A DNA stretch of 52,392 bases from an uncultured Rikenellaceae bacterium (GCA_964555805.1 CAZKTX010000002.1:1-52392); one strand, 5' to 3'. Counted from the first letter of the stretch, positions 6,454-49,676 are shown. Numbers and translations: made by a program. The notes: generated from the sequence alone by a model not told the origin.

Positions 6454-6527
6454 TGATCCCGACAGGATTCAAACCTGTAACCTTCTGATCCGTAGTCAGA
6501 TGCTCTATTCAGTTAAGCTACGGGACC
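6454..6527 (-). tRNA. tRNA-Arg (anticodon ACG)
   Basis: The reverse complement folds by hand as a cloverleaf: acceptor GGTCCCG/CGGGATC, D-arm GCTT..GAGC, anticodon stem TCTGA/TCAGA with loop CTACGGA (anticodon ACG), and T-arm ACAGG-TTTGAAT-CCTGT. CCA is not encoded. Confidence 0.9.
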
Positions 6528-33380: not shown

Positions 33381-34010
33381 ATGGGCAAAGTACAGGAGAA
33401 AAGTCCCCATGGGCTTGAGCTGCCACTGGTTGAAGAATTCTTTACAATTCAGGGCGAAGGATATCATTCAGGAGAGGCAGCATGGTTCATCAGGCTGGGT
33501 GGTTGTGATGTTGGCTGCAACTGGTGCGATTCTCGCTTTTCATGGGATCCGGACATGCACCCTCTGGTTCCGACTGAAAAGATTGTTGAACATGCACTGG
33601 GCTCAGGTTCCGGATCGGTGATTGTTACCGGCGGTGAACCTTTGATGTGGAATCTTGATCTTCTGTGCGATGGCCTTAAGAAAGGAGGCTTACGTACTTT
33701 TATTGAGACATCGGGGGCTTACAGCCTGAGTGGATTATGGGACTGGATATGTCTGTCACCAAAGCGAAACATGCCTCCGACTGAAGAAATCTGTCTCAAG
33801 GCAGATGAACTTAAAGTAATAATTGAAAGCAAAGATGATTTTGAGTGGGCTGAGAAATACAGGAACCTGGTCGGACCCCGGTGCAGACTCTACATCCAGC
33901 CTGAATGGAGCAGGTTCAGGACTGTCATTCCTGAAATCGTCAGCTATGTCAAGGAGAACCCCGACTGGAAAATATCCCTGCAGATACACAAATACATGCA
34001 TATTCCCTAG
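33381..34010 (+). CDS. queE: 7-carboxy-7-deazaguanine synthase (radical SAM)
   Basis: 209 aa. FTIQGEG...RLGGCDVGCNWCDS is the Cys cluster, and the size and layout match QueE. Confidence 0.85.
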   Translation: MGKVQEKSPHGLELPLVEEFFTIQGEGYHSGEAAWFIRLGGCDVGCNWCDSRFSWDPDMHPLVPTEKIVEHALGSGSGSVIVTGGEPLMWNLDLLCDGLKKGGLRTFIETSGAYSLSGLWDWICLSPKRNMPPTEEICLKADELKVIIESKDDFEWAEKYRNLVGPRCRLYIQPEWSRFRTVIPEIVSYVKENPDWKISLQIHKYMHIP

Positions 34011-34011
34011 T

Positions 34012-35955
34012 ATGAAGAAAGGGCTGGTCATAATTGCTGCGTTCATAATGATTTTCTTCATTCCCGGGAATCAGTGCTATTCGCAAAAGTACCACACAAC
34101 TTCGGTCAAAGCCCTTAAGTTCTACAAGTCCGGAATGACTGCCTTTGACTATATTGATTACATAAATGCCGAAAGCTATTTCAATCAGGCGATTGAAACT
34201 GATGAGAACTTTTTTGAGGCATATATGATGCTGGGGGAACTGCTCTCGAAGCAAAAGAGATACGGAGAGGCAGCCAGGAATTTCCAGAAAGCTGTCAGAC
34301 TCGATTCTACAGCCTACATGCCTGTCTTTTTCAACATGGCTACAGCCGAGATGATGTCGGGCGATTACGAAAAAGCGCTTGTTCATTACAAGGTTTATCT
34401 GGCTCAGGAAAAAATATCAGAAAAAAATAAAGCACTTGCAGTCAGAAACATCATAAACTGTGAGTTTGCCATAGAAGCAGTAAAAAATCCCGTTCCATTC
34501 AGCCCCGAAACTGTTGGTGATGGCATAAACACAAGTCATGATGAATACTGGCCTTCCATTACTGCTGACGGACAGACTCTCATGTTTACCCGTCAGACAA
34601 AACCGGGTGAAAATGTGCTCAGAAGAGGTATCTCACAGGAGGATTTCTATGTCAGCATCATGCAGGAATCAGTCTGGAAAGATGCCGTTAATGCAGGCAG
34701 TCCCCTGAACACAAGTCAGAATGAGGGCGCCCAGAGTCTTTCTTCCGACGGCAATTACATGTATTTCACAGCATGTGACCGTTCCGGCGGATTAGGAAGC
34801 TGTGATATATTCTTTTCGGCTTTCAGCAATAATCGCTGGTCGATTCCTGTCAATCTTGGGAGTCCTGTCAATACATCCTTCTGGGAAAGCCAGCCCGCGA
34901 TCAATGCTGACGGCCGGATGTTGTTCTTCTCGAGCAACAGACCCGGTGGGAAAGGAGGGAAGGATCTCTATTTTTCGGTCTGGAAATCGAACGGCAAATG
35001 GAGCTTTCCCCGTAATATGGGTGATAAGGTGAACACTCCGGGTGACGAGATGTCGCCGTTTATACATTTTGACGGAAGGACTCTTTATTTTGCTTCTGAC
35101 GGTCGTCCCGGGATGGGCGGCTCAGATATTTATTTCACAAGGATGCTTGAAGATACAACCTGGACCGAACCTGTGAACCTGGGTTTTCCCATTAATACCT
35201 ACAATGATGAGATGGGTCTTACAATAGAATCAGGAGGGGAGAAGGCGTATTTTTCGTCCAGAAGAGACGACAAGGGAGGAAAGGATATTTTTTCTTTCAG
35301 GCTCCACGAGGCTGTGCAGCCCGATCCTGTTGCATATATAAAGGGAAAAGTTACCGACAGGTTAACAGGTCAGATGCTTGTTGCAGAATATGAGCTTGTA
35401 AATCTGACAACCGGAAAATCAGTCTTCAATAACCAGACAGATTCCAAAGGCAATTTCCTGGTGTGTCTGCCATCCGGAAACAATTACGGCCTCAATATAA
35501 GCAAAGATGGTTATCTATTCTACTCAGAGAATTTTATGCTGGAGGGAACGCATTCTGTACTGCAGCCCTTCATTAAGAATATATTGCTCAGCCCTTTCAG
35601 GGTAGGGGAAAAGATGCTTCTTTCCAATGTGTTCTTTGAAGTTGATTCATGGCAGCTTAAAAAGGAATCTGTTGCCGAACTTAACATGCTGTCGGATTTA
35701 TTGAAAAACAACAAGGAACTCAGGGTTGAAATAGGGGGATATACTGATGCCACAGGGTCGGAAGAGCATAATCTTGACCTTTCTGAAAAGAGAGCGCTTG
35801 CAGTAGTTGATTTTCTTGTGAACAGCGGCATCCCTAAGGAGAGGCTTACTTACCGGGGATACGGCAATGCCTCGCCAGTTGGAGATAATGTCACATTCGA
35901 AGGACGAAAGCTTAACAGGCGAACTGAGGTTCAGATAACAGAGTATCAAAAATAG
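34012..35955 (+). CDS. TPR / PD40 (TolB-like beta-propeller) / CarboxypepD_reg / OmpA-domain envelope protein
   Basis: The true start is MKKGLVIIAAFIMIFF at 34012, since the track start at 33823 overlaps queE. Repeated PD40 motifs occur (E..P.I..DG..L.F.S.R.GG.GG.D). The C-terminal OmpA peptidoglycan-binding motif is GYTD..G....N..LS..RA. Confidence 0.85.
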   Translation: MKKGLVIIAAFIMIFFIPGNQCYSQKYHTTSVKALKFYKSGMTAFDYIDYINAESYFNQAIETDENFFEAYMMLGELLSKQKRYGEAARNFQKAVRLDSTAYMPVFFNMATAEMMSGDYEKALVHYKVYLAQEKISEKNKALAVRNIINCEFAIEAVKNPVPFSPETVGDGINTSHDEYWPSITADGQTLMFTRQTKPGENVLRRGISQEDFYVSIMQESVWKDAVNAGSPLNTSQNEGAQSLSSDGNYMYFTACDRSGGLGSCDIFFSAFSNNRWSIPVNLGSPVNTSFWESQPAINADGRMLFFSSNRPGGKGGKDLYFSVWKSNGKWSFPRNMGDKVNTPGDEMSPFIHFDGRTLYFASDGRPGMGGSDIYFTRMLEDTTWTEPVNLGFPINTYNDEMGLTIESGGEKAYFSSRRDDKGGKDIFSFRLHEAVQPDPVAYIKGKVTDRLTGQMLVAEYELVNLTTGKSVFNNQTDSKGNFLVCLPSGNNYGLNISKDGYLFYSENFMLEGTHSVLQPFIKNILLSPFRVGEKMLLSNVFFEVDSWQLKKESVAELNMLSDLLKNNKELRVEIGGYTDATGSEEHNLDLSEKRALAVVDFLVNSGIPKERLTYRGYGNASPVGDNVTFEGRKLNRRTEVQITEYQK

Positions 35956-35982
35956 AACAGCTGCCTGGTAAGACAGCTGTTC
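35955..35982. terminator. Hairpin terminator between the convergent ompA-like and kinase-like genes
   Basis: A perfect 9-bp stem pairs GAACAGCTG (35955-35963) with CAGCTGTTC (35974-35982) around a 10-nt loop. Confidence 0.55.
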
Positions 35983-36032
35983 CGGACTCATGCATCAGCA
36001 TGCAGACATCGACATCAACTTTTCTTCAATTA

Positions 36033-36869
36033 TCAGATAGGACTCATAGTATTGGAAAATTCGTTAATTGAGTTATCGTGGTTTTCAACTGACGCGACCG
36101 GGATGGCAAAGTAGATGGAAGAACCTGTCCTTCCGTTGTTTTCGATCCAGATCGATCCGTCCATCATCCGTATCAGTTTTCGCACAAGGGCCAGGCTAAC
36201 GGCTGTATGTATGTCGTCGTACCTGGCAAGGGATTCTTTTAAATCAATGCTCTGTAGGAATTCCCTGCATTTAAGGTAACCCTGCCCCGAATCAGTAATG
36301 CAGAACCTGATTTTGCCTTCTGTAATGCTATAACTGACTTTAATATAACCTGATTCCGTGTTGCTCAGAGCTATCTGGAATAAATTGCGAATTACTCTTG
36401 TAACCCTGTTCGCATCAAATAGGCAGTCAGGGCTATTGCAGACCACATTTTCTGAAACAAGCAGAAGATGCTTGTACCTTTCCTTCTTTAGTATTTCCCT
36501 GAACTCTGAAAACAGATCCGCGAACATCTTACCAGTATGAACGACTCCAGGCTCCGAAATTGAATTGCCAGCATCAATTATGGCGGAATCCAGAAAATTG
36601 TCGAAAAGGGAAATAATCTGTTCGCACGAATTATATATATGATTGCCGAACTCCTCCCTCTCGGGTTCACAGTATTCCGATTTGTTCATCATGAAAGAGA
36701 AGGCAACTATTGCGTTCATCCGGGTCCTCATCTCCCGCGATAATTCTGTCAGTACCGCGGAGGAACCGGATACCGGTTCAATTAACTGGTCAACGCTTCC
36801 GGCCTGATCCCTTTTCCCCGGAACCTGGTCGCCGGAATCACCCTTTATATGTCCAAACAGGTCGAACAT
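36033..36869 (-). CDS. Soluble histidine-kinase-like protein (HisKA-like + HATPase_c) with a substituted phospho-acceptor site; probable pseudokinase
   Basis: 278 aa with no TM or sensor domain. The H-box position reads LSREMRTRMNAI where the canonical sequence is SHE(L/I)RTP(L/M)NAI, so His is replaced by Arg. The N-box (IRNLFQIALSNT) and G1 (ITDSGQG) are recognisable. The G2 glycines are missing (TAVSLALV). Confidence 0.7.
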   Translation of the reverse strand: MFDLFGHIKGDSGDQVPGKRDQAGSVDQLIEPVSGSSAVLTELSREMRTRMNAIVAFSFMMNKSEYCEPEREEFGNHIYNSCEQIISLFDNFLDSAIIDAGNSISEPGVVHTGKMFADLFSEFREILKKERYKHLLLVSENVVCNSPDCLFDANRVTRVIRNLFQIALSNTESGYIKVSYSITEGKIRFCITDSGQGYLKCREFLQSIDLKESLARYDDIHTAVSLALVRKLIRMMDGSIWIENNGRTGSSIYFAIPVASVENHDNSINEFSNTMSPI

Positions 36870-36896: not shown

Positions 36897-37646
36897 TTAT
36901 TTCAGGTATCTGAGAATTTTCTTTGCTTGCTTTCTGTAGATTGTCTTTGAATCTTCGATTGCAGCAAGCTGATCCAAGGCCTTTGCTTTTTCACCCGTCT
37001 TTATGTAGCACAGGGCCAGATACCATTGCGCATGATCAATATAGAAGTTGTTATTATCTTGTATTACTTTTGAAAAGGAGCCGCTTGCTTCAGGATAATT
37101 CTGGTTTTCGAAGTTCGAAATGCCGTTAAGCAGTTCGGTATGCATATCGCCCGGATTGTCTTCAAGTACCCTGGAGAAGTATATAGCTGCATTCCTGTAA
37201 TCCCTGACGTTGTAGTATTCCACTGCAAGACGGAAATTATCTGAATTTGAAGCCATGTTTGCAGAACGGGATACTGTAGCAACTTCATAGGGCTTGTAGT
37301 ATCGGCTTATAATCTCGTCGCTGTCAGGCCTGCCTCTTGAAAGCAATGCTATGCTTCCAATTATTACAAGGCTGGTTATTATTGCTGCGTACCTGATATT
37401 GACAGGCTTTTTGGGTTTTACTTCAGGCACTGGTTCCTGGCGCCGTTTCTCAATAGCGTTCAGTTTGTTGCGAAGATTCATAATATCCCGGTCCTTCAGA
37501 ATCATATCGGTCCGGTTACGCAGTTCAACCTCACGGCGAAGCTTCTCATTGCCTTCCAGTTCTTTCCTGAACCATTCCTTTTCAGCTTCATCCATTTCAC
37601 CGGCATTATACCGCTCGATAAAGTATGAAAAATCAATTGTTTTCAT
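36897..37646 (-). CDS. Single-pass membrane protein with anti-sigma-like N-terminus and periplasmic TPR domain
   Basis: 249 aa. The N-terminal FIERYNAGEMDEAEKEWFRKELEGNEKLRREVE resembles anti-sigma N-domains but lacks the Zn ligands. A TM helix follows (IRYAAIITSLVIIGSIALL), and the C-terminus carries TPR-like repeats (AVEYYNVRDYRNAAIYFSRVLE..., AQWYLALCYIKTGEKAKA). Confidence 0.6.
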   Translation of the reverse strand: MKTIDFSYFIERYNAGEMDEAEKEWFRKELEGNEKLRREVELRNRTDMILKDRDIMNLRNKLNAIEKRRQEPVPEVKPKKPVNIRYAAIITSLVIIGSIALLSRGRPDSDEIISRYYKPYEVATVSRSANMASNSDNFRLAVEYYNVRDYRNAAIYFSRVLEDNPGDMHTELLNGISNFENQNYPEASGSFSKVIQDNNNFYIDHAQWYLALCYIKTGEKAKALDQLAAIEDSKTIYRKQAKKILRYLK

Positions 37647-37953: not shown

Positions 37954-38088
37954 TCAGATCTTGACAGGAGGTAATGAAGGTTTCAGGATGGGGTCGGCAT
38001 CACCACCTTTTACACAAATCATTTCTTCAACTGTCAGAGCATACACATCAAGATTCGCATCAGAGTTTTTTACGTTCAGGGTTTTCAT
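37954..38088 (-). CDS. 44-aa precursor peptide with a double-glycine (bacteriocin-type) leader, GG-Bacteroidales natural-product-precursor-like
   Basis: My own translation of the minus strand gives MKTLNVKNSDANLDVYALTVEEMICVKGG|DADPILKPSLPPVKI*. The leader fits the L(S/T)xxEMxx(V/I)KGG pattern cleaved by C39 peptidase domains. A C39-ABC exporter is encoded 4 kb away. The leader upstream of the ATG is A-rich. The ORF is too short for the supplied track. Confidence 0.7.
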   Translation of the reverse strand: MKTLNVKNSDANLDVYALTVEEMICVKGGDADPILKPSLPPVKI

Positions 38089-38332
38089 AGTGCTGATTTT
38101 TTCATTAAATATTATTTCGGATAATTTGCATTTTCAAGCCAAATTCTATGTAACATGTCGGTATACCCCGTTTTGTGACACTGAAAAATGAACTATTTTT
38201 AAAATATTTTTTATATTCAAGATAATCAACTACATACAAAAAGGGAAAAAATGACAATCAGACCGTCATTATAACATTTTTTGTAAACTTGCGTTTTGGC
38301 ACGGGGAAGCGACTAATTAATCATCGACCTTG

Positions 38333-41300
38333 ATGTTTTCAGGCATCTTCATAAAGTCCTTATTGCTGTTCTTCATTTCTGCTGCCAGTTTTTGCCAGGA
38401 AAATGCAATCTCAGATTCCGGTAATGAACTGGCTGGACTGAATGAAGCCTTTCATGCAACAATTGCTGCCGGTGACACTGCCGGGTCGAGGGATCTGCTC
38501 TATTCAATTCTGAAGATTCTCAGGGAGGAACGGTTTGACAATATTACAGTTTCCAATTCTCAGTATTATATAGGGGTATATTATCTTCTTAACGGCAGGA
38601 ACAAGGAAGCTGTAAGCTGGCTGGGATCGTCCGTCTCGTTACGTGAGAAGATGAAGACTGTCGACGACGTGTATGCAAAAAGTCTGTTTAATCTGGCTCT
38701 GGCACACTCCAGGCGCGGAGATTTCAGGAAGATGGAAGAAAGCATCCTTCAATCTATTGATGCTGAGAAGACCCTGCATGGAGAAAATAGTCCCGAACTC
38801 CTGGATGGATATTCTGCATTGACGGGGGCCTGCATCAGCCTTAAGGATTACAGCCGAGCCATAGAATTCGGCAACATGGCGCTTGATCTGATCGGGGTGA
38901 ACAAGACTGAGCATATTAAGGAAATGGCGATCCTTAATGTGAATATCGGGATCAGCCATGCCTTTCTGTCCGACTATGCAAAGGCTGTAATGTTTCTTGA
39001 GAGGGCAGAATCGTTGTATCGGTCCAATCCCATTCCAAAGGATGAAAATTATATTAACCTGCTTAACAGTCTTGCGTCAAATTACCACTTCCTCGGACAG
39101 TCTGAAAAATCCGAAAGGTATTTCAACAAAGGCATCAGCATGATAAACTATGCGAATTCAGATCTGTCGCTTAATTTTCTGAACAGCTTTGCAATAAATA
39201 TGGGAAACGCAGGAGAAGCGTACAGGGGGGAGAAACTCCTGGCCGTCTCACTTGCAAAAGCCGGTAAGGTCTTCGGTCAAAGCTCAAGGGAGTACTGCGA
39301 GGTACTTAAGAACTACGCCGAATATCTCAGAAATTTCAAACTGGATATTGGCAGATCCATTGTATTATTCGAACAGTGCCTTGAATTAATTAAGGTCAAC
39401 AGTGAGGATTCTGCTTTGAAAGAATCGGTTCTGCTGGGGTATGCCCTTGCTCTTTCAGAAAAAGGGGAGAATGAAAAAGCTCTTGGAATCATTTCAGACT
39501 TACTTTTTTCAGGCAAAGATGGGACAGACTCAGGTTCAGGTCTTAAAAGCCCCGGACCGGGCCTGCTTGTGCCAGACCAATGGTCGTTAAAGCTGCTTCA
39601 GGCAAGATACAGAATACTCCATGGGATCTATGGAGAGAAGGCAGATATGAGCTACCTTCTGGCGGCAGCAGAAACGTCCGAACTGATTGTTTCCCTTATT
39701 GAGAAGGTGAGAATTAGTATAAGCGAGGAAGAAAGCAGGCTTGTTCTCGGAGACAGGTTCAGGGATTCCTATCTGCATGCTATCCGCGATCTTGACCTGT
39801 GCTACAGTAAAACCGGCGACATCAGTTATCTGAAAAAGGCTTTTGAGTATTCCGAGAAGTCAAAGGTTGCGGGCCTGCTGACTTCAACGAGGGAACTCAG
39901 GGCCACAGAGTTTCATATCCCCGAAGAAACAGCAGAACTTGAGCGCGGGCTGAAAATGGAAATAGGCTACTATGAAGCCAGAATAAGTGAAGAAGAAACA
40001 AAGAAGGAAAGTGATGACTCCCTTATAGAGGAATGGAAGGAACTTCTCCTGTCCGCAACTCAGAAAAGAGACTCTCTGATAGCTGTTTTCGAACAGATGT
40101 ATCCCGGTTATTATCTTATCAAATACAATACTGAGGTTATTTCGCCGGAACAAATTCCTTCTATTTCCGGCCGGAACACAAACTACCTTAACTATATAGT
40201 GTCCGACAGCCTTCTCCATATTTTTGTTGCAAACAGGAAGTATCTCCGGCTTGTTACTATAAACATCGATTCTTCCTTTTTCAACAATATCAGAGAGTTC
40301 CGGGCTCTTCTGTCGGAGCCTGACAATAATGCCAGGTCAGGGTTTGACAGATATCTTTCAACGGGCTACAGTCTCTACGCGACAGTCCTGGAGCCAGTGA
40401 AACAGTATCTGATTTCTAACAGGCTGCTGATCTCCCCCGATAACATTCTTTCGTATATACCATTCGAAGCTCTGCCAGTAAGCACTGAAGCCGGCAGCAA
40501 TGCAATGTTCAGCGAAATTCAGTATCTTCTGAAAGATTACAGCGTTTCATATACATATTCGGCAACTATGCTTGCTGAATCCGTCGGCAACGATCAGAGC
40601 TTCTCAAACTCTGCTGTTGCATTTGCTCCGAGCTATAATGGCAGGATTGATGTTGACTCACTTATGAAAGCCAGGCAATCAGGTGTTTCATCACTTTACG
40701 ACCTTAAATTTGCACGGGCTGAGGCTGAGTATGTTGCAGAACTGACCGGAGGCAGGCTTTATCTCGACAATAACGCAAGAGAATCGGTTTTTAAAACCGT
40801 GGCAGCGGAATATGATATAATACATCTTGCAATGCATACACTGCTAAACGACAAGGACCCGATGCATTCAAAGATGATTTTTTCGCAGGGTAACGATTCT
40901 CCGGAGGACGGCAACCTTAATACCTGGGAGGTTTATGGTATTCCGCTTAAGGCGAAAATGGTTATTCTAAGTTCCTGCAACACCGGAAGTGGTTCTTTGC
41001 ATTCAGGCGAGGGCATCCTGAGCCTTGCCAGGGGCTTCGTTTACTCCGGATCAAGGTCAGTTGTTATGTCAATGTGGGAAATAGAAGACAGATCGGGTGC
41101 CGAAATAGTAAATAAATACTACAGGAACATCAGGCATGGCGTATCAAAGAGCAATGCATTGCGAAAGGCAAGGATTGACTATCTGAGAAATTCCGACATG
41201 TTGAGATCTCACCCTTATTTCTGGTCATCGCTGGTTATTTATGGCAACAATACTCCGATTTATTATTCCTTATGGCTGAAGATTTCTGCAGGACTTCTTA

Positions 41301-41350
41301 TACTTCTTATTCCGGCAATACTGATCCTGATCTATAGTAAATCCAGATAA
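38333..41350 (+). CDS. Exported, C-terminally membrane-anchored TPR-CHAT protein (caspase-fold protease)
   Basis: About 1005 aa with a signal peptide MFSGIFIKSLLLFFISAASFC|QENA and approx. 600 aa of TPR-like repeats. The C-terminal CHAT domain has an intact His/Cys dyad (IIHLAMHT ... MVILSSCNTGSG). A terminal TM follows (ISAGLLILLIPAILILIYSKSR). The ATG at 38333 directly follows the track's TTG at 38330. Confidence 0.85.
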   Translation: MFSGIFIKSLLLFFISAASFCQENAISDSGNELAGLNEAFHATIAAGDTAGSRDLLYSILKILREERFDNITVSNSQYYIGVYYLLNGRNKEAVSWLGSSVSLREKMKTVDDVYAKSLFNLALAHSRRGDFRKMEESILQSIDAEKTLHGENSPELLDGYSALTGACISLKDYSRAIEFGNMALDLIGVNKTEHIKEMAILNVNIGISHAFLSDYAKAVMFLERAESLYRSNPIPKDENYINLLNSLASNYHFLGQSEKSERYFNKGISMINYANSDLSLNFLNSFAINMGNAGEAYRGEKLLAVSLAKAGKVFGQSSREYCEVLKNYAEYLRNFKLDIGRSIVLFEQCLELIKVNSEDSALKESVLLGYALALSEKGENEKALGIISDLLFSGKDGTDSGSGLKSPGPGLLVPDQWSLKLLQARYRILHGIYGEKADMSYLLAAAETSELIVSLIEKVRISISEEESRLVLGDRFRDSYLHAIRDLDLCYSKTGDISYLKKAFEYSEKSKVAGLLTSTRELRATEFHIPEETAELERGLKMEIGYYEARISEEETKKESDDSLIEEWKELLLSATQKRDSLIAVFEQMYPGYYLIKYNTEVISPEQIPSISGRNTNYLNYIVSDSLLHIFVANRKYLRLVTINIDSSFFNNIREFRALLSEPDNNARSGFDRYLSTGYSLYATVLEPVKQYLISNRLLISPDNILSYIPFEALPVSTEAGSNAMFSEIQYLLKDYSVSYTYSATMLAESVGNDQSFSNSAVAFAPSYNGRIDVDSLMKARQSGVSSLYDLKFARAEAEYVAELTGGRLYLDNNARESVFKTVAAEYDIIHLAMHTLLNDKDPMHSKMIFSQGNDSPEDGNLNTWEVYGIPLKAKMVILSSCNTGSGSLHSGEGILSLARGFVYSGSRSVVMSMWEIEDRSGAEIVNKYYRNIRHGVSKSNALRKARIDYLRNSDMLRSHPYFWSSLVIYGNNTPIYYSLWLKISAGLLILLIPAILILIYSKSR

Positions 41351-41892
41351 TCCTTGTATTCAGGGTCGGATTTAATAAGCTCCATAAGAGCTTCTTTACT
41401 CATATATTTTTTTCTCCTGGCATATGATTCACTCTTGAAATTCATTAAGGAGGCGATTTCCGGGTATGATAATCCTTCTGAAAACAGCGTCAGGATTTTC
41501 TGTGCATCATTGCTCAGCTTTCTGAAAGCCCGGCTAACTATAGTCTCAAGAACCAGATTCGGATCATCACCTTCTTCATTATCAGGGAAGTCACCGTCAA
41601 TACCAGTGTTTCTCATCTTCTTCCTCAGCTGTACCTTCCAGACATTCCTTGCAATACCGAAGAAATAACCTTTCAGATCGGTCGTGAGGCTGAAACCATC
41701 TGCTGTGACCTGACGATAAAGCGTTATGATGGATTCCTGGAAAACATCAGGGATATCTGATTCTGATCCGCTGTTTTTTAATACATGATACCTTACAGTC
41801 TCAAGATAATTATCATAGAGCCAGTTCAGTATCTGATCATCCTGTCGCCGGATTCCATCAATTATTGCACTATCTGAGATTTTTCGGAACAA
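41332..41892 (-). CDS. Sigma-70 family (ECF-like) RNA polymerase sigma factor
   Basis: The region 2 pattern is DVFQESIITLYR...GYFFGIARNVW and the region 4 HTH is LSYPEIASLMNFKSESYARRKKYMSKEAL. There is no in-frame ATG near the N-terminus, so the candidate starts are TTG at 41892 (MFRKISDSAIIDGIRR) or TTG at 41931 as in the track. Confidence 0.75.
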   Translation of the reverse strand: MFRKISDSAIIDGIRRQDDQILNWLYDNYLETVRYHVLKNSGSESDIPDVFQESIITLYRQVTADGFSLTTDLKGYFFGIARNVWKVQLRKKMRNTGIDGDFPDNEEGDDPNLVLETIVSRAFRKLSNDAQKILTLFSEGLSYPEIASLMNFKSESYARRKKYMSKEALMELIKSDPEYKDYLDLL

Positions 41893-41920
41893 TTGCTGAT
41901 TTTTCGCCTGGATAAATTGA

Positions 41921-41928
41921 CAAATATA
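41921..41928 (-). promoter_or_regulatory. Candidate -7 box (TATATTTG) for the sigma-factor gene
   Basis: The minus-strand sequence TATATTTG matches TAnnTTTG exactly and lies 28 nt upstream of the TTG at 41892. No TTTG -33 element occurs at the consensus spacing. If this box is real, the 41931 start would be non-coding. Confidence 0.35.
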
Positions 41929-42052
41929 CAATTTCCCGCGACCTGCAGTAGCGGACTGTCAGCGGGCAAACTCGCAAATTTACAATTTAAGGCATTTATG
42001 ATAAATAATAAATATATTTACTCCTCTCAAATAAACGCTCAGGCACCGAAAA

Positions 42053-44239
42053 ATGTTATTTCCCTTTGTAAAACAATATGATGCGATGGATTGTGGTCCG
42101 GCGTGCCTCAAGATGATTGCGGCATATCACGGGAAGAATTTCACAATCGATTACCTGCGAAAAAAGTGCTTCATCACAAAAGAGGGAGTATCATTCCTTG
42201 GATTGTCGGAAGCTGCAGATTCTGTAGGGTTCAGAACGATGGGGGTCAAAATACCTTTTGGAGTGCTTCAGGAAAAGATTGCTCTGCCATGTGTGGTTCA
42301 CTGGCGCCAGAAACACTTTGTTGTTGTTTACAGGATCAGAAAGGGGAAAATTTATATTGCTGACCCTGCGACCGGGCTTGTCACTTTAACGAAGGATGAA
42401 TTCGAAAGGAACTGGGCCAATACATTTGTCGACGGAAAACCTGCCGGCCTGGCGCTGACTGTTGAACCGACTCCCTCGCTCTATAACATCGATGATCAGA
42501 CGGAGAAGACAGGAGGCTTCAGGTTTCTTATGAAATACTTCAGACTGTACAGGAAGTATTTCGGTCAGCTTCTGCTGGGGCTTCTTATCGGCAGCTGTAT
42601 CCAGCTTATTTTCCCCTTCCTTACTCAGTCTATTATCGACATCGGAATCAACAATAACGACCTGGGATTTATTTATTTAATACTCTTTGCCCAACTGGCA
42701 CTCATAGTTGGCCGGATGTCGGTTGAGTTTATCCGCGGATGGCTGCTCCTTCACATCGGATCGAGAGTCAATGTCGCTGTTGTTTCAGGCTTCCTTAATA
42801 AGCTGATGTCACTTCCCGTTGCCTTTTTTGATACACGGCTGACGGGAGACATTATTCAGCGAATTGAAGACAACAACAGGATTGAAGATTTTCTTACATC
42901 AGCCAGTCTCAGTATATTGTTTTCCTTTATGAATCTTATAGTGTTCGCTATTGTGCTTGCTGCTTTCAGTCTGAAAATATTCCTGATTTTCCTGACGGGG
43001 ACATGTCTTTACATTTTGTGGGTTTCTCTTTTTCTTAAACCAAGGGCGAAGCTGGATGATATCCGTTTCAGGGAAATGTCAGTTTCAAGCTCGAAGCTTA
43101 TAAACATTATAAACGGGATGCAGGAGATAAAACTGACCCAAAGCGAGACAAGCAAGCGCTGGGACTGGGAGGGCCATCAGGCATCCCTGTTCGCACTTAA
43201 GGTCAAGGGTCTCGGGCTTATTCAATATCAGTCGGCAGGCGCCACACTAGTAAATGAAGTTATGAATATTTTCATAACAATATTTGCTGCTACTGCTGTC
43301 CTCAAGGGACAAATGACGCTGGGTATGATGCTTGCCGTTCAGTTTATTATAGGACAGCTCAATATTCCTGTAAACCAGATTATAGGCTTCTTTCGAATGT
43401 CGCAGGATGCAAGGATCAGTCTCAACCGTCTCGCCGAGGTGCATAATATGGAGGATGAGGAACCATCGCCCGTGGACAAGCTTCAGCGGATGCCGGATGA
43501 CAGGACAATCAGGATACATAATCTTTCGTTTCAGTATGAAGGGCCCCGTTCTCCCTATGCCCTGAAAGACATCAGTCTTGATATTGAGCCTGGCCGGACA
43601 ACAGCAATTGTAGGCACAAGCGGAAGCGGAAAGACAACTTTGCTGAAGATGCTTCTTGGGTTTTATCAACCTGTTGACGGGAATATAGCTGTTGGCGGAA
43701 CAAGTCTGTCAGACATCAGTTTACGGTTCTGGAGAAAAAATACAGGAGCTGTAATGCAGGACGGATTCCTCTTTCCCGACACAATAGCAGGCAATATAGC
43801 CCCGGGGGCTGAGGTAATTGACGAGGCCAGACTTCGTGATGCGGTTGAAACAGCCAATATAAGGGAATTCATTGAATCTCTGCCGCTGGGATACAACACG
43901 AAGATCGGTGCAAATGGTCATGGTCTCAGTCAGGGTCAGAAACAGAGGCTGCTGATAGCCAGAGTAGTTTACAAGGATCCCGAGATAGTCCTTTTCGACG
44001 AAGCCACCAACTCACTTGATGCAAATACTGAAAAAGCCATAGTTGAAAACCTTTCAGGTTTCTTCAGAAATAAAACGGTTATTATTGTCGCCCATCGTTT
44101 AAGCACGGTCAGGAATGCAGACAAAATAGTTGTTCTGGAAGGAGGCCGGATCATTGAAACAGGAAATCACCAGGAACTTGTCAAAAATATGGGTGCTTAT
44201 TTTAACCTTGTAAAAAACCAGCTGGAACTGGGGAATTGA
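42053..44239 (+). CDS. Peptidase-C39-domain ABC transporter (double-glycine leader processing and export)
   Basis: 728 aa. The N-terminal C39 domain has the catalytic Cys (YDAMDCGPACL), His (HWRQKHFVVVY) and Asp context (IADPA). It has a 6-TM ABC membrane domain, Walker A GTSGSGKTT, signature LSQGQKQR and Walker B IVLFDEAT. Confidence 0.95.
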   Translation: MLFPFVKQYDAMDCGPACLKMIAAYHGKNFTIDYLRKKCFITKEGVSFLGLSEAADSVGFRTMGVKIPFGVLQEKIALPCVVHWRQKHFVVVYRIRKGKIYIADPATGLVTLTKDEFERNWANTFVDGKPAGLALTVEPTPSLYNIDDQTEKTGGFRFLMKYFRLYRKYFGQLLLGLLIGSCIQLIFPFLTQSIIDIGINNNDLGFIYLILFAQLALIVGRMSVEFIRGWLLLHIGSRVNVAVVSGFLNKLMSLPVAFFDTRLTGDIIQRIEDNNRIEDFLTSASLSILFSFMNLIVFAIVLAAFSLKIFLIFLTGTCLYILWVSLFLKPRAKLDDIRFREMSVSSSKLINIINGMQEIKLTQSETSKRWDWEGHQASLFALKVKGLGLIQYQSAGATLVNEVMNIFITIFAATAVLKGQMTLGMMLAVQFIIGQLNIPVNQIIGFFRMSQDARISLNRLAEVHNMEDEEPSPVDKLQRMPDDRTIRIHNLSFQYEGPRSPYALKDISLDIEPGRTTAIVGTSGSGKTTLLKMLLGFYQPVDGNIAVGGTSLSDISLRFWRKNTGAVMQDGFLFPDTIAGNIAPGAEVIDEARLRDAVETANIREFIESLPLGYNTKIGANGHGLSQGQKQRLLIARVVYKDPEIVLFDEATNSLDANTEKAIVENLSGFFRNKTVIIVAHRLSTVRNADKIVVLEGGRIIETGNHQELVKNMGAYFNLVKNQLELGN

Positions 44240-44249
44240 GAAACAGATC

Positions 44250-45578
44250 ATGGAAGATCAAGAAAAGAATGAGATAGTATATTCAGAACCTGTCAGGGAT
44301 ATAATGGGAGCTGTGCCCGGAGGGATACTGAGATGGGGTACGGCAATTATTCTTGCTGTACTGGTTCTTTTTATTTTCTTCCTGTGGCTCGTGAAGTATC
44401 CCGACAGGGTTCCCGCACCAGTTGAAATAACTACAGTAAATCCGCCTGCCATACTTGTTTCAAAAATATCCGGAAGGATTAAGAATCTTTACGTGAATGA
44501 CAGGGATGAGGTTGCTGAGGATCAGCTCCTTGCAGTAATGGAAACTGCAGCTTCGATTGGAGAGATAAACCGTCTTAAATCAATTGTTGACACTGTAAGT
44601 GACCCGGGAGAGCTGCAGCTGAAATCACTCCCTGCTTTTACCGAACTGGGAGAACTGCAGAGTTACTGGAGTTCATTCCTCAAAAGCCTGTCTGATTACA
44701 ATAATTACAATGTCAACGACTTTTATGGGAATAAGATCCTTTCTCTTACTGATGAAATAAACGCTATCCTGGCTTATATCGGAAGGATCAGGGTTAAAGA
44801 GAATTTGTATTCAGAGAACCAGGTGATTGAGACAAGAAAGTTCAGAAGGGATTCGTTACTTTTTTCAGAAGGAGTCTACTCGGAAAGTGAGCTCGAGAAA
44901 TCACGGCAGGCTCTTATCCTGCTTAATATCGAACTTCAGCAGGTTCGGCTCGATCATTCCCAGAAATCAATAGAACTGGCTGAAAAAAGGCAATTGCTTC
45001 AGGACTACAGGATAAAGCGAATAGAGGATCATGAGAAGTACTATTCTGTTCTTAGTGAATCTTTTATGAATCTCAGGGCTCAGTTAAGGATATGGGAAAA
45101 TACATATTTGCTTATATCCCCTGTGTCGGGGACAGTAACGCTTACAAGGTTCTGGAGCGAAAATCAGACGGTTGAAAGGGATGAGCCTGTTTTGAGCGTT
45201 ATTCCCAGGGAAACCGGCGACTATATCGGCAGGATCAGCCTCAAAATGAACCGTTCCGGAAAGGTCAAACCAGGTCAGGATGTCCATATCAAATTAAGCG
45301 GGTATCCTTATCTGGAGTATGGGATGGTAAGGGGAGTTGTAAAATCCAGGTCGCTGGTTCCTTCTGCCGATTCATATATAATAGAGATATCCCTGCCTCA
45401 GGGCCTGACAACCCTGTATGGCAGGGATCTTGATTTTTCGCAAAACATGCAGGGTACCGCGGAAATTATAACTGAGGACCTTCGTTTGCTTGAGAAAATT
45501 CTTAATCCTGTCAGGCATCTTGTTTCCCGGAACCGGAGCCGGGATATTTCCCTGAATAAGGCTCATAGTCATCCCTGA
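44250..45578 (+). CDS. HlyD-family secretion adaptor protein
   Basis: 442 aa with an N-terminal TM (WGTAIILAVLVLFIFFLWLV), a lipoyl-like segment, a long coiled coil and a C-terminal beta-barrel. It starts 10 nt after the ABC gene. Confidence 0.85.
   Translation: MEDQEKNEIVYSEPVRDIMGAVPGGILRWGTAIILAVLVLFIFFLWLVKYPDRVPAPVEITTVNPPAILVSKISGRIKNLYVNDRDEVAEDQLLAVMETAASIGEINRLKSIVDTVSDPGELQLKSLPAFTELGELQSYWSSFLKSLSDYNNYNVNDFYGNKILSLTDEINAILAYIGRIRVKENLYSENQVIETRKFRRDSLLFSEGVYSESELEKSRQALILLNIELQQVRLDHSQKSIELAEKRQLLQDYRIKRIEDHEKYYSVLSESFMNLRAQLRIWENTYLLISPVSGTVTLTRFWSENQTVERDEPVLSVIPRETGDYIGRISLKMNRSGKVKPGQDVHIKLSGYPYLEYGMVRGVVKSRSLVPSADSYIIEISLPQGLTTLYGRDLDFSQNMQGTAEIITEDLRLLEKILNPVRHLVSRNRSRDISLNKAHSHP

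Positions 45579-46002: not shown

Positions 46003-49676
<3,674 letters not shown>

Follow-up and report, generated by a model that had tools for sequence, protein, structure and literature searches.

A TPR-CHAT protease with predicted periplasmic topology in a conserved sigma factor and peptide module of Bacteroidota

Introduction

Can a caspase-like protease held outside the cytoplasm control a sigma factor encoded at its side, and what signal would set it off? The question is raised by a gene for a TPR-CHAT protein next to a sigma factor gene in a stretch of DNA of 52,392 nucleotides from an uncultured Rikenellaceae bacterium, referred to here as the window. An earlier note on this DNA read the product as an extracytoplasmic, tail-anchored protease and likened the pair to the CRISPR-associated Craspase, with the CRISPR components left out.

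The TPR-CHAT protease

38333..41350, + strand: TPR-CHAT protease, 1005 aa, ATG to stop (Pfam, AlphaFold2, Foldseek)
40835..40837, + strand: codon of catalytic His835 (HLAMHT), invariant in 75 sequences
40976..40978, + strand: codon of catalytic Cys882 (LSSCNTG), invariant in 75 sequences

The 1005-aa reading frame reported previously runs uninterrupted, and a CHAT protein of identical length and sequence is present in a public collection (P0001). The product is a genuine caspase-like (CHAT) protease, with peptidase activity predicted from its sequence. Pfam assigned CHAT (PF12770) to residues 679–973 (E = 1.6e-54, 185.8 bits, cutoff 24) in a match spanning positions 4–289 of the 289-position profile, and TPR_12 (E = 1.3e-25) within an array of ~20 TPR-like helical pairs. 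Both putative catalytic motifs, HLAMHT and LSSCNTGSG, are found, and the His/Cys dyad is intact, as had been claimed: His831, His835, and Cys882 are invariant in an alignment of 75 relatives, with His835 and Cys882 also invariant in a distant paralogue group.

The AlphaFold2 model (pLDDT 83.4, pTM 0.78) was compared with known structures using Foldseek, which matched separase, Csx29, and DdvA (E 5e-13 to 4e-12, probability 1.00). The best match was separase 9hma (5e-13), accompanied by Csx29 7xsr_C (1.7e-12, TM-score 0.58 normalised to target) and DdvA 8rot_A (4e-12). Model and matches together display the TPR-CHAT three-dimensional architecture and bear out the suspected likeness to Csx29 and separase. 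As in separase, whose repeats help substrate recognition, a helical-repeat array precedes the caspase-like domain; separase, in contrast, is eukaryotic, soluble, much larger, and regulated by securin and phosphorylation, with no role in membrane or sigma-factor signaling.

Membrane topology

38333..38398, + strand: signal peptide or N-terminal signal anchor, residues 1–22 (MFSGIFIKSLLLFFISAASFCQ) (hydropathy, 75/75 relatives)
41270..41347, + strand: C-terminal membrane helix and YSKSR tail, residues 980–1005 (hydropathy, AlphaFold)

Only two 19-residue stretches of the CHAT protein exceed 1.6 on the Kyte-Doolittle (KD) scale, within residues 1–22 and 975–1005. The C-terminal stretch reaches a KD of 2.66, is modeled by AlphaFold as a helix (980–1003), and is separated from the last CHAT strand by a gap of only ~8 residues. 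At the N-terminus, the model shows a helix at 2–18 (low confidence) followed by disorder at 18–28. These end features are kept across the family: an N-terminal hydrophobic region (10-residue KD > 2.0) occurs in 75/75 relatives, preceded by a median of 2 Lys/Arg, and the C-terminal helix exceeds a KD of 2.0 in 73/75. The tail beyond this helix comprises 3–9 residues, with 2–4 Lys/Arg in 75/75 relatives and almost no acidic residues. Among the distant paralogues (n = 31, 35–41% identity), a KD > 2.0 is found for the N-terminal segment in 27 and for the C-terminal helix in 25, and all 31 tails have at least two Lys/Arg.

According to the positive-inside rule, both ends lie in the cytoplasm or membrane, which places the TPR-CHAT body in the periplasm, with or without cleavage of the signal peptide. 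Judged from hydropathy and charge, the body almost certainly faces the periplasm and would be exported, in agreement with the tail-anchored topology first suggested. The cleavable signal peptide of the earlier note, with processing at SFC|QENA, stands as a segment and not as an exact site. Most relatives display typical n/h/c regions with an AxA-like site at the end, while close relatives read ...AVSFQQEF around the candidate position, making A-x-S|F cleavage at least as likely. A lipoprotein reading was ruled out, as the Cys near the N-terminus is not conserved in relatives.

That the N-terminal segment is no export signal, leaving CHAT cytoplasmic and tail-anchored, appears extremely improbable. 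Just one Lys precedes the hydrophobic region in the window protein, as this reading might expect; against it stand the retention of both hydrophobic ends and of the n/h/c and AxA-like features in relatives, the basic C-terminal tail, whose cytoplasmic placement leaves the body on the far side of the membrane, and a partner anti-sigma-like protein whose TPR domain also lies outside.

Gene content and distribution of the module

36033..36869, − strand: soluble protein of 278 aa with HisKA and HATPase_c, encoded at the end of the peptide operon (Pfam)
36897..37646, − strand: anti-sigma-like TM-TPR protein, 249 aa (TPR families in Pfam; AlphaFold of the N-domain)
37954..38088, − strand: double-glycine-leader precursor, 44 aa, with leader MKTLN..LTVEEMICVKGG and core DADPILKPSLPPVKI (ORF and GG motif)
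41332..41892, − strand: ECF-type sigma factor with a probable TTG start at 41892 (186 aa) (TIGR02937, Sigma70_r2, r4_2)
42053..44239, + strand: Peptidase-C39 ABC exporter, PCAT (Peptidase_C39 3.4e-37, ABC_tran, ABC_membrane; TIGR01193 1.5e-126)
44250..45578, + strand: HlyD-family periplasmic adaptor (TIGR01843 2.8e-19, under the family cutoff)

The CHAT gene is part of a module that comprises a GG-leader peptide, an anti-sigma-like TM-TPR protein, a kinase-like protein, the protease, an ECF-type sigma factor, and a C39-ABC exporter with HlyD. Three of these neighbors had been recognized (the sigma factor, the single-pass TPR protein, and the 44-aa ORF with its 15-aa core), while the double-glycine nature of the precursor and the membership of the exporter, HlyD, and the kinase-like gene in the unit had been overlooked.

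The same gene order recurs across about 80 Bacteroidales genomes, and the sigma gene adjoins CHAT in essentially all loci that reach past the CHAT 3′ end. Linkage was also examined in the distant paralogue group (~35–40% identity), drawn from unrelated metagenomes, without the QueE/PorE/DUF349 flanks and with varied gene orders. Among the 25 such loci whose flanks both extend for ≥3 kb, a sigma gene is present in 23, an anti-sigma-like gene in 24, and both in 22, with homology at 1e-31 to 1e-45 for sigma and mostly 1e-30 to 1e-69 for the anti-sigma-like protein. The CHAT–sigma linkage, whose absence from relatives had been named as grounds for abandoning the idea, thus held among both syntenic and distant loci. 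The kinase-like gene is linked to the module in 11/25 distant loci, ABC/HlyD genes adjoin it in only 3/80, and distant CHAT–sigma–anti-sigma loci often have no detectable peptide gene. The combination of CHAT with a membrane helix is no rarity: a threshold of E ≤ 1e-30 still gathers 10,971 cluster representatives.

The 52-kb window contains no CRISPR array, as previously observed, nor any tandem array, and its scanned ORFs gave no match to a cas family; relatives likewise have no cas context. No module protein matched PADLOC, and no defense genes were found in the locus, which is core-chromosomal and flanked by housekeeping genes.

The sigma factor and promoters

41921..41928, − strand: TATATTTG, housekeeping −7 box match, upstream of the revised sigma start
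38154..38180, − strand: promoter-like motif TGTCACAAA-N10/11-CGACATG, fixed 27-nt span, with the peptide ATG ~61 nt downstream

The sigma factor has the hallmarks of the ECF class (group 4): only sigma-2 and sigma-4 regions, a length of about 190 aa, and a profile score above threshold (TIGR02937, 46.9 bits, cutoff 42.9). Sigma70_r2 was also matched above its cutoff (27.3 bits against 24), with Sigma70_r4_2 slightly under (23.0 against 25.7). The start was revised on the orthologue consensus, which begins LFRKISD. The sigma and CHAT genes converge and share 19 nt at their 3′ ends.

Upstream of the revised start, TATATTTG is conserved among loci, as the reverse complement of TTGACAAATATA, and fits TAnnTTTG, the −7 consensus of housekeeping promoters in Bacteroidetes. 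The sigma and ABC genes bear such housekeeping-like boxes, not the special bipartite motif. The latter, built on TGTCACAAA, has a single occurrence in the window, where chance predicts 0.01, and one per locus in 75/81 sequences (1.54 Mb). In every locus whose peptide gene was covered, it lies upstream of that gene and on its strand. Over the roughly 23 kb analyzed per locus, no promoter other than that of the peptide operon bears it. Distant families with a different sigma factor carry a different but analogous bipartite motif in the same place. We regard the motif as a candidate target of the sigma factor of the module.

The anti-sigma-like protein

The 249-aa protein is laid out as a three-helix cytoplasmic N-domain, one membrane helix, a conserved juxtamembrane motif (YYxPY..RS), and a periplasmic TPR domain; the single hydrophobic helix follows residue 85, with the TPR C-terminal to it. 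Pfam detected TPR families only, and for the N-domain a cutoff as loose as E ≤ 10 brought up no family. AlphaFold modeled residues 1–84 as three helices (pLDDT 89), for which Foldseek returned only four matches in the PDB, RslA (three chains) and RsiW, at non-significant E values of 3.4–8.7. In each of the four, an anti-sigma domain is in complex with an ECF sigma. A profile match of the N-domain to RsrA was likewise weak and non-significant (E = 0.7).

Other traits of class I anti-sigma factors are present, namely a single membrane helix, an extracytoplasmic sensor, and a gene near that of the sigma factor: the two genes lie 4 kb apart in the window, and in many distant loci the paralogue adjoins sigma on the same strand. 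The architecture is consistent with anti-sigma function. In the window, the sigma and anti-sigma-like genes are not co-transcribed.

The peptide and its predicted export

35954..35983, − strand: terminator-like hairpin, 13-bp stem then T-run, after the kinase-like gene

The 44-aa ORF, which matched no curated family, contains a 15-aa core directly following Gly-Gly. The ORF is open and its GG motif conserved in >70 loci, synonymous changes exceed non-synonymous ones among close relatives, and one locus (L041) harbors five tandem copies. Its gene always adjoins CHAT in divergent orientation; in distant loci, a GG-leader mini-ORF divergently upstream of CHAT was found in 25 of 58 eligible cases versus 2 elsewhere in 927 kb. 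With the GG leader, C39 ABC transporter, and HlyD accessory protein, the double-glycine/PCAT export set is complete. The kinase-like protein that closes the operon has His in the H-box column in 46 orthologues and Arg in 20, and in the lineage of the window the phospho-acceptor His has become Arg.

Export of GG-leader peptides by C39-ABC and HlyD proteins is classic for class II bacteriocins and microcins, and GG-leader toxins, the bacteroidetocins, are reportedly made by Bacteroidetes. The locus could accordingly encode an antimicrobial, with TPR-CHAT serving immunity or self-protection and the sigma/anti-sigma pair only regulating production. We consider this very improbable, given cores of 7–35 aa that are acidic, proline-rich, and devoid of Cys, neither cationic nor amphipathic. 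The core has moreover been kept over deep divergence in one vertically inherited, housekeeping-flanked chromosomal locus, which is neither strain-variable nor mobile and has no immunity-type small membrane protein.

Co-divergence was assessed by partial correlation after control for the divergence of flank genes (permutation p about 0.003–0.005). Divergence of the peptide core tracks only the periplasmic parts of CHAT and the anti-sigma-like protein, with a partial r of 0.30 for the CHAT TPR array, 0.25 for the anti-sigma TPR, and 0.17–0.23 for the juxtamembrane segment, values that are suggestive only, since common ancestry and uneven rates inflate correlations of the Mantel type. No correlation was seen with the CHAT protease domain, sigma, the anti-sigma N-domain, the kinase-like protein, ABC, HlyD, or the flanks. 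The pattern argues for the peptide as a ligand, a role that the short, Cys-free, acidic, and proline-rich cores also favor.

The same data could be read with the peptide, once exported, as a CHAT substrate that is trimmed, matured, or destroyed in signal processing or quenching, the anti-sigma TPR as its receptor, and another protease removing the anti-sigma. Extended peptides are commonly held by TPR arrays, the core co-varies to an equal degree with the CHAT array and the anti-sigma TPR, and the peptide gene is always beside CHAT. This reading is nonetheless unlikely: cores from different families share no residue able to define a cleavage site, the core in the window family is already just 15 aa, and a 1005-aa anchored protease tied to sigma and anti-sigma, often with no detectable peptide gene, better fits a regulatory protease.

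Proposed mechanism

Gene content, topology features, fold, conserved linkage, promoter motif, and the co-divergence pattern were observed directly; from them we infer a mechanism in which the peptide triggers CHAT, the anti-sigma is cut, and sigma is released. The proposal is tentative, and we give it a little short of an even chance of being right.

The sigma factor would be made constitutively, as its housekeeping-type promoter implies, and be tethered at the inner membrane by the single-pass anti-sigma-like protein. The 44-aa precursor would be cleaved after Gly-Gly and exported via C39-ABC and HlyD as a short acidic, proline-rich linear peptide (DADPILKPSLPPVKI). The signal peptide would export TPR-CHAT, and the C-terminal helix would keep it on the periplasmic face, an anchoring that would leave only a few residues between the caspase-like active site and the membrane. 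Binding of the peptide to periplasmic TPR surfaces, whether on the protease, on the anti-sigma, or on the two together, may then activate or direct CHAT to make a site-1 cut in the juxtamembrane periplasmic part of the anti-sigma, after which intramembrane proteolysis would free sigma. Released sigma would transcribe the peptide/anti-sigma/kinase-like operon from the TGTCACAAA-N11-CGACATG promoter, giving positive feedback via the peptide and negative feedback via the anti-sigma.

Several points weigh against this scheme. PCAT/HlyD systems in diderms normally expel their peptide to the outside, so that a ~1.6 kDa peptide would need to re-enter the periplasm. The sigma gene in the window also has no special promoter and is transcribed apart from the anti-sigma-like gene, whose N-domain has no significant match. 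ABC/HlyD genes seldom adjoin the module in distant loci, and the scheme gives no part to the kinase-like protein, which in this lineage has lost its phospho-acceptor His.

Relation to known systems

Mechanistically, the proposal for the CHAT module is that of DegS-RseA-RseP-sigmaE. DegS of E. coli is an inner-membrane-anchored periplasmic protease activated by peptide C-termini that bind an accessory domain, whereupon it makes the site-1 cut in RseA, a single-pass anti-sigma factor. DegS belongs to the serine proteases and senses misfolded porin C-termini through a PDZ domain, whereas here the protease would be of the caspase-like Cys type, with TPRs as sensor, and would respond to a dedicated, locus-encoded exported peptide.

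The peptide branch resembles Gram-positive signaling. As in ComAB/CSP and BlpAB, a GG precursor would be cut and exported by a C39-ABC transporter; as in RRNPP systems, TPR domains are the likely peptide receptors, and autoinduction would likewise run through a dedicated promoter. Gram-positive pheromones are, however, sensed by two-component kinases or, after import, by cytoplasmic TPR regulators. The candidate receptors here are periplasmic, and the proposed output is anti-sigma proteolysis in a diderm.

The Craspase parallel survives in part. Craspase, of type III-E CRISPR loci, joins gRAMP/Cas7-11 to the TPR-CHAT protease Csx29, which acts on Csx30, beside an RpoE-type sigma. The TPR-CHAT fold and a CHAT protease beside an ECF-type sigma factor are shared, but the likeness is one of analogy: neither a CRISPR array in the window nor gRAMP or Csx30/31 among its scanned ORFs was found, and sequence identity is only 10–12%. 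Craspase works in the cytoplasm, where Csx29 docks on a Cas effector, is guided by RNA, and is switched on by its target RNA, whereas the CHAT body here would lie outside the cytoplasm by virtue of its signal-peptide-like N-terminus and C-terminal anchor.

The closest precedent is DdvA, not Craspase. In Myxococcus xanthus, DdvA is an anti-sigma factor with TPR-CHAT as its periplasmic domain, and in the mechanism put forward by its authors CHAT would make the site-1 cut, with RseP coming next (PMC11506125). The linkage of a periplasmic CHAT to an ECF sigma thus has a precedent; both systems pair a TPR-CHAT with a His-Cys dyad, periplasmic here by predicted topology, genetically with an ECF-type sigma.

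Since DdvA controls an ECF sigma for phage defense and its structure (8rot) matches the model at 4e-12, the module might likewise be a surveillance sensor, with TPR-CHAT detecting a foreign or damaged envelope protein (phage, competitor, or stress) to trigger sigma and the peptide as output. This is decidedly unlikely in view of the lack of PADLOC matches and defense genes, the core-chromosomal location, a sole motif-bearing promoter that drives the peptide operon itself, and the peptide/TPR co-divergence, which argues for the peptide as ligand.

There are also clear differences from DdvA, which combines anti-sigma domain, membrane helix, scaffold, TPR, and CHAT in one polypeptide. Here, anti-sigma-like protein and protease are separate, and the anti-sigma has its own TPR domain. 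The CHAT protein has no cytoplasmic N-domain, and its only membrane helix is C-terminal, next to CHAT, an opposite anchoring. A GG-leader peptide, an exporter, and a kinase-like protein are added, and DdvA serves anti-phage defense, whereas no defense regulon is apparent here. DdvA-like proteins have been reported only in Myxococcota and one Comamonas (PMC11506125), in contrast to the very large Bacteroidota family described here. The module is a widespread and hitherto undescribed gene unit of Bacteroidota, for which we propose a role in envelope signaling.

A Predicted Periplasmic TPR-CHAT Protease

The window contains a set of genes around a TPR-CHAT protease, which had been proposed in the earlier note to lie in the periplasm, anchored by its tail, and to be encoded next to a sigma factor.

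Features of the module and its regulatory DNA (window coordinates, strand, description)
35954-35983, minus: strong terminator-like hairpin after the peptide/anti-sigma/kinase operon
36033-36869, minus: soluble HisKA plus HATPase_c (kinase-like) protein, neighbor of the CHAT gene
36897-37646, minus: 249-aa protein with helical N-domain, single membrane helix, and C-terminal TPR, neighbor of the CHAT gene
37954-38088, minus: 44-aa ORF with canonical double-glycine (GG) leader (..LTVEEMICVKGG) and 15-aa core DADPILKPSLPPVKI, open and conserved
38154-38180, minus: conserved bipartite motif TGTCACAAA-N10/11-CGACATG, upstream of the peptide gene
38333-41350, plus: TPR-CHAT protease, uninterrupted ORF, 1005 aa
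40823-40825, 40835-40837, and 40976-40978, plus: codons of the invariant His831, His835, and Cys882
41332-41931 as called, minus: ECF-type sigma (TIGR02937, 46.9 bits, cutoff 42.9)
42053-44239, plus: Peptidase-C39 ABC exporter (PCAT), module gene
44250-45578, plus: HlyD-type adaptor, module gene

Pfam places a CHAT domain (PF12770) at residues 679-973 (E = 1.6e-54) and several TPR families in the N-terminal half. An identical counterpart is already present in the public protein collection, and the more than 200 close relatives (1000-1040 aa) all stem from uncultured Bacteroidales or Bacteroidota, with annotation limited to "CHAT domain-containing (tetratricopeptide repeat) protein". His831 and His835 (HLAMHT) and Cys882 (LSSCNTG) are invariant across an alignment of 75 sequences spanning 46-86% identity. 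A fold search was needed because the CHAT-family profile retrieved only TPR proteins, and no CHAT chain, among the 60 matches listed from PDB sequences. The AlphaFold2 model built on the same alignment was confident (pLDDT 83.4, pTM 0.78) and consists of ∼20 helical pairs, an alpha/beta domain, and a terminal helix (980-1003). In a Foldseek comparison with the PDB, the three top groups were separase (9hma, E 5e-13), the Craspase TPR-CHAT Csx29 (7xsr_C, E 1.7e-12, TM-score 0.58 normalized to target), and the anti-sigma factor DdvA (8rot_A, E 4e-12). Together, the domain, the invariant dyad, and the Foldseek matches identify the protein, by sequence and predicted fold, as a genuine TPR-CHAT protease whose dyad is intact, as had been proposed.

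Hydrophobic segments are confined to residues 1-22 and 975-1005. The N-terminal region is hydrophobic in 75/75 relatives, usually with Lys/Arg before and small residues after it, and the C-terminal helix is strongly hydrophobic in 73 of the 75; in the 3-9 residues that follow it, every relative has 2-4 Lys/Arg and hardly any acidic residues. Among 31 distant paralogues inspected (930-1140 aa, with 35-41% identity across the CHAT part), the same hydropathy threshold detected the N-terminal segment in 27 and the C-terminal helix in 25, and a basic tail was present in all 31. Since both termini would be cytoplasmic or membrane-embedded under the positive-inside rule, these features argue strongly for a periplasmic TPR-CHAT body, with or without signal peptide cleavage. 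The gap of ∼8 residues between the last CHAT strand (PYFWSSLVIYG) and the helix would bring the protease domain up against the periplasmic surface of the inner membrane. The extracytoplasmic, tail-anchored topology claimed earlier is thus strongly supported, with both hydrophobic ends and the basic tail kept among relatives, while the proposed cleavage site is uncertain. The Cys at that site (Cys21) is not conserved, and a lipoprotein reading of the N-terminus was rejected for this reason. A sortase/exosortase-type sorting signal at the C-terminal helix and basic tail was also set aside: the conserved PYFWSSLVIYG just before the helix aligns within the CHAT profile (match to residue 973, profile position 289/289) and is better read as the domain end than as a separate sorting motif.

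Sigma Factor, Anti-Sigma-like Protein, and Peptide

The sigma and CHAT genes are convergent, with 3′ ends that overlap by 19 nt (41332-41350). This overlap is kept in syntenic loci, short convergent overlaps are common among distant loci (e.g., L090, L106, and L112), and the arrangement hints at transcriptional interference or coupling.

The N-domain of the 249-aa protein has no Pfam match at E ≤ 10, and its profile gave only subthreshold matches in the PDB; the top match, a Nif11-type leader (E = 0.0026), was judged to be helical or low-complexity noise, and RsrA matched at E = 0.7. The N-terminal consensus, IExYLDGELsxxExxxFExxLxxxxELxxE, resembles the class I anti-sigma motif in its zinc-less form. 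Residues 1-84 are modeled by AlphaFold as a three-helix unit (pLDDT 89), for which Foldseek returned four PDB matches only, RslA (3hug, three chains) and RsiW (5wuq), both anti-sigma domains complexed with their ECF sigmas; the TM-scores were 0.57-0.64 (target-normalized), with E-values of 3.4-8.7 that are not significant. Based on these matches, the architecture, and the gene neighborhood, the 249-aa protein is a probable anti-sigma factor. A juxtamembrane motif, YYxPYx(5-6)RS, is common to the anti-sigma-like proteins of all families, with its Arg >90% conserved, and might conceivably serve as a recognition or cleavage site. One distant subfamily (L121, L122, L126, L127, L137, L141, L143, L144, L148, L150, and L156) has anti-sigma-like proteins of ∼505-512 aa that share the N-terminal motif but extend into a far larger C-terminal part; their partner peptides have very short cores of ∼10 aa (e.g., KSEDVYVDLN).

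The 44-aa peptide has no Pfam or NCBIfam match. Its ORF is open and retains the GG motif in >70 loci, synonymous changes outnumber nonsynonymous ones among close relatives, and the core follows the consensus (D/E)P-I-x-x-P-x-x-PP-x-x-(I/L); judged by this conservation, the ORF is real. The peptide gene occurs as five identical tandem copies with one promoter motif ahead of them in L041 (8710-9622, minus) and as two diverged copies in L074 (9381-9697, minus), and the peptide plus anti-sigma pair is duplicated in L150 (7295-9764). One of the main rival explanations takes the locus, with its GG-leader precursor and exporter, for a bacteriocin locus.

The kinase-like protein has neither a sensor domain nor a membrane helix, and no response regulator is encoded in the locus. 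Its phospho-acceptor His is replaced by Arg (LSREMRT), a change seen in 20 of 66 orthologues, the window's closest relatives among them; SHEMRT is kept in the other 46.

Conserved Linkage

The order QueE-PorE-kinase-antisigma-peptide-CHAT-sigma-ABC-HlyD-DUF349 is found in all sufficiently long loci of the CHAT family, for which 80 genome loci were recovered and 274 species-level genomes matched. Because the flanks are also syntenic, this order alone could reflect inheritance without selection, and 80 metagenome loci of the distant CHAT paralogue group were therefore examined. None of these (0/80) has the QueE, PorE, or DUF349 flanks. Sigma homologues (E about 1e-31 to 1e-45) and anti-sigma-like homologues (mostly 1e-30 to 1e-69) nonetheless occur together with the distant CHAT genes in varied orders and orientations. 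Where at least 3 kb was available on both sides (n = 25), a sigma was found in 23 loci, an anti-sigma-like protein in 24, both in 22, and a kinase-like protein in 11; the proposed association of CHAT with sigma genes is thus clearly maintained in relatives. In 25/58 eligible distant loci, a mini-ORF with a GG leader is found upstream of CHAT in divergent orientation, against 2 pattern matches in the other 927 kb. Many distant loci also carry a second anti-sigma-like paralogue directly adjoining the sigma on the same strand, the classic arrangement of sigma and anti-sigma genes. It is very probable that the CHAT protease and the sigma, together with the anti-sigma-like protein and the peptide, make up one functional module.

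Ten distant representatives checked were all of MAG or metagenome origin (10/10), with no cultured host among them. Two TPR-CHAT superfamily genes lie <10 kb apart in L103 (3573-6587 and 10001-12748) and L104 (2042-4837 and 7327-10209), pointing to several such paralogous modules in one genome.

Directly upstream of the module, a PorE-like type IX secretion/OmpA-family protein (33823-35955, plus; NF052230, 1.7e-90, below the family cutoff) is syntenic in 80/80 close loci. It is missing from the distant ones and therefore probably does not belong to the module. The remainder of the window is core chromosome, encoding RNase Y, CTP synthase, YidC, an AcrB-type efflux pump with outer-membrane factor, an AsmA-family protein, and C69 and M23 peptidases. 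Rfam matches a single feature of the window, a tRNA gene (6454-6527, minus). An imperfect 21/42-nt tandem repeat (46179-46300, plus) lies in the DUF349 gene, within the part that encodes the acidic N-terminal region.

Regulatory DNA

The bipartite motif TGTCACAAA-N10/11-CGACATG occurs once in the window, against 0.01 expected by chance, and exactly once per locus in 75/81 sequences (1.54 Mb), always spanning 27 nt. It lies upstream of the peptide gene(s) wherever a peptide gene is present (median 61 nt to the ATG) and not upstream of CHAT, sigma, or exporter. A search for this motif in the distant loci found none near the module; there, a different bipartite motif, GGGTTACCTTTT-N10-GGAATAAAC, takes its place ahead of the peptide gene, as expected if each family's sigma recognizes its own promoter. 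Within the mechanically called sigma ORF, in the stretch 41893-41931 (minus), lies a conserved TATATTTG box that matches the Bacteroidetes housekeeping −7 box TAnnTTTG; the exporter gene has a similar box. Given this box under the called start (TTG at 41931) and an orthologue consensus that begins at LFRKISD, the true sigma start is probably the TTG at 41892, yielding 186 aa. The housekeeping-like box and the peptide-operon motif fit a constitutive sigma that would drive the operon after release, and we infer that the sigma uses the bipartite motif as its promoter.

The 5′ untranslated region of the peptide gene (∼38089-38150, minus) holds a second conserved element, GAATTACCC(T/G)GAA(T/A)TAGTATCAAT..TTAAAA, which is also present at the same place in L001-L160 and is repeated ahead of each tandem peptide copy in L041; its AGTAT(C/T)AAT...TTAAAA part is common to distant families despite their differing promoter motifs. 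The 307-nt spacer between peptide and anti-sigma genes showed no significant RNA structure (z = −0.09) and no Rfam family.

Co-divergence of the Peptide Core

Pairwise divergence of the 15-aa core was compared with that of each protein segment in 43 taxa with all ten genes intact, with the divergence of the three housekeeping genes in the flanks as control. Only periplasmic parts gave positive partial correlations: the CHAT TPR array (r = 0.30; sub-block 276-400, 0.31), the anti-sigma TPR (0.25), and the anti-sigma juxtamembrane segment (0.17-0.23), with a permutation p of about 0.003-0.005 for each. Under the same control, the partial r was ≤0.10 for the CHAT middle, CHAT protease domain, anti-sigma N-domain, sigma, kinase-like protein, ABC, HlyD, peptide leader, and flanks. 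The kinase, CHAT middle, and anti-sigma N-domain evolve at similar rates without such a signal, which argues that this is not simply a rate effect. Co-divergence of the core with the periplasmic TPR parts is suggestive only, as Mantel-type tests are liberal on related sequences. Another main rival explanation makes the peptide the protease's substrate.

Comparison with Known Systems and Proposed Mechanism

The closest known system is DdvA-DdvS of Myxococcus xanthus, in which DdvA, the sole characterized periplasmic TPR-CHAT, is a transmembrane anti-sigma factor with a TPR-CHAT as its periplasmic domain (PMC11506125). The authors note that its activating signal is unknown; they propose signal-induced CHAT autoproteolysis before RseP cleavage, with the CHAT-driven site-1 cut as yet unproven, and anti-sigma factors of this type are reported only from Myxococcota and one Comamonas (PMC11506125). 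The third main rival explanation is that the module is a DdvA-like surveillance sensor. The module differs from DdvA in that protease and anti-sigma-like protein are separate rather than fused, the protease is anchored C-terminally, the anti-sigma-like protein has its own TPR sensor, and the unit further includes a dedicated GG-leader peptide with its exporter, as well as a kinase-like protein. It has no defense context: the flanks are housekeeping genes, and a reading as a known defense system was dropped because PADLOC gave no matches for the module proteins. It also belongs to a very large Bacteroidota family; a search with the CHAT and membrane-helix part retrieved 96,406 cluster representatives at E ≤ 1e-3, of which 10,971 reached E ≤ 1e-30.

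The earlier interpretation survives in its topology and conserved sigma linkage, whereas its parallel with Craspase is superficial, and DdvA provides a fused precedent. The TPR-CHAT fold and a nearby sigma are shared with Craspase, but no Cas effector or Csx30 was found among the neighboring ORFs scanned and no CRISPR array in the window, and the predicted compartment differs. In function, the module would most resemble DegS-RseA-sigmaE, in which the site-1 cut is made by a membrane-anchored periplasmic protease that a peptide activates; here those roles would fall to a caspase-like enzyme and a peptide encoded by the locus itself. A full-text literature search found no description of a CHAT/sigma/anti-sigma-like/peptide module, and among the papers listed by a search on CHAT proteins in named Bacteroidetes genera, none used the term "CHAT domain".

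In the best-supported model, the CHAT protease brings about release of the ECF sigma under the control of the peptide. The linear peptide, exported by the PCAT, would switch on the periplasmic, membrane-tethered caspase-like protease, which would then make the site-1 cut in the TPR-bearing anti-sigma factor and free the ECF sigma; this constitutively made sigma, once released, would drive the peptide/anti-sigma/kinase operon. We give slightly under an even chance to a peptide-triggered cut of the anti-sigma factor by the CHAT protease. The wider proposal, that Bacteroidota, as Gram-negative diderms, possess dedicated peptide circuits for cell-cell or autocrine signaling in which a PCAT-exported linear peptide allosterically activates CHAT, leading to anti-sigma cleavage and ECF sigma release, is rather unlikely by our estimate.

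Significance

The module splits the logic of DdvA into separate, testable parts and adds a locus-encoded candidate ligand, which makes the activation of an extracytoplasmic caspase-like protease directly testable and offers a tractable route to how such proteases become activated. To our knowledge, peptide-based signaling systems are barely known in this Gram-negative phylum, and the locus would be a genetically compact case if the peptide is the signal. Orthogonal sigma/promoter/peptide/protease sets would also be attractive synthetic biology parts in Bacteroidota. If the wider proposal is true, thousands of paralogous TPR-CHAT/sigma/anti-sigma sets would constitute a large, specificity-diversified family of peptide-gated proteolytic switches. 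Very many Bacteroidota proteins whose annotation now stops at "CHAT domain-containing" or "tetratricopeptide repeat" would likewise gain a function if the peptide is the signal.
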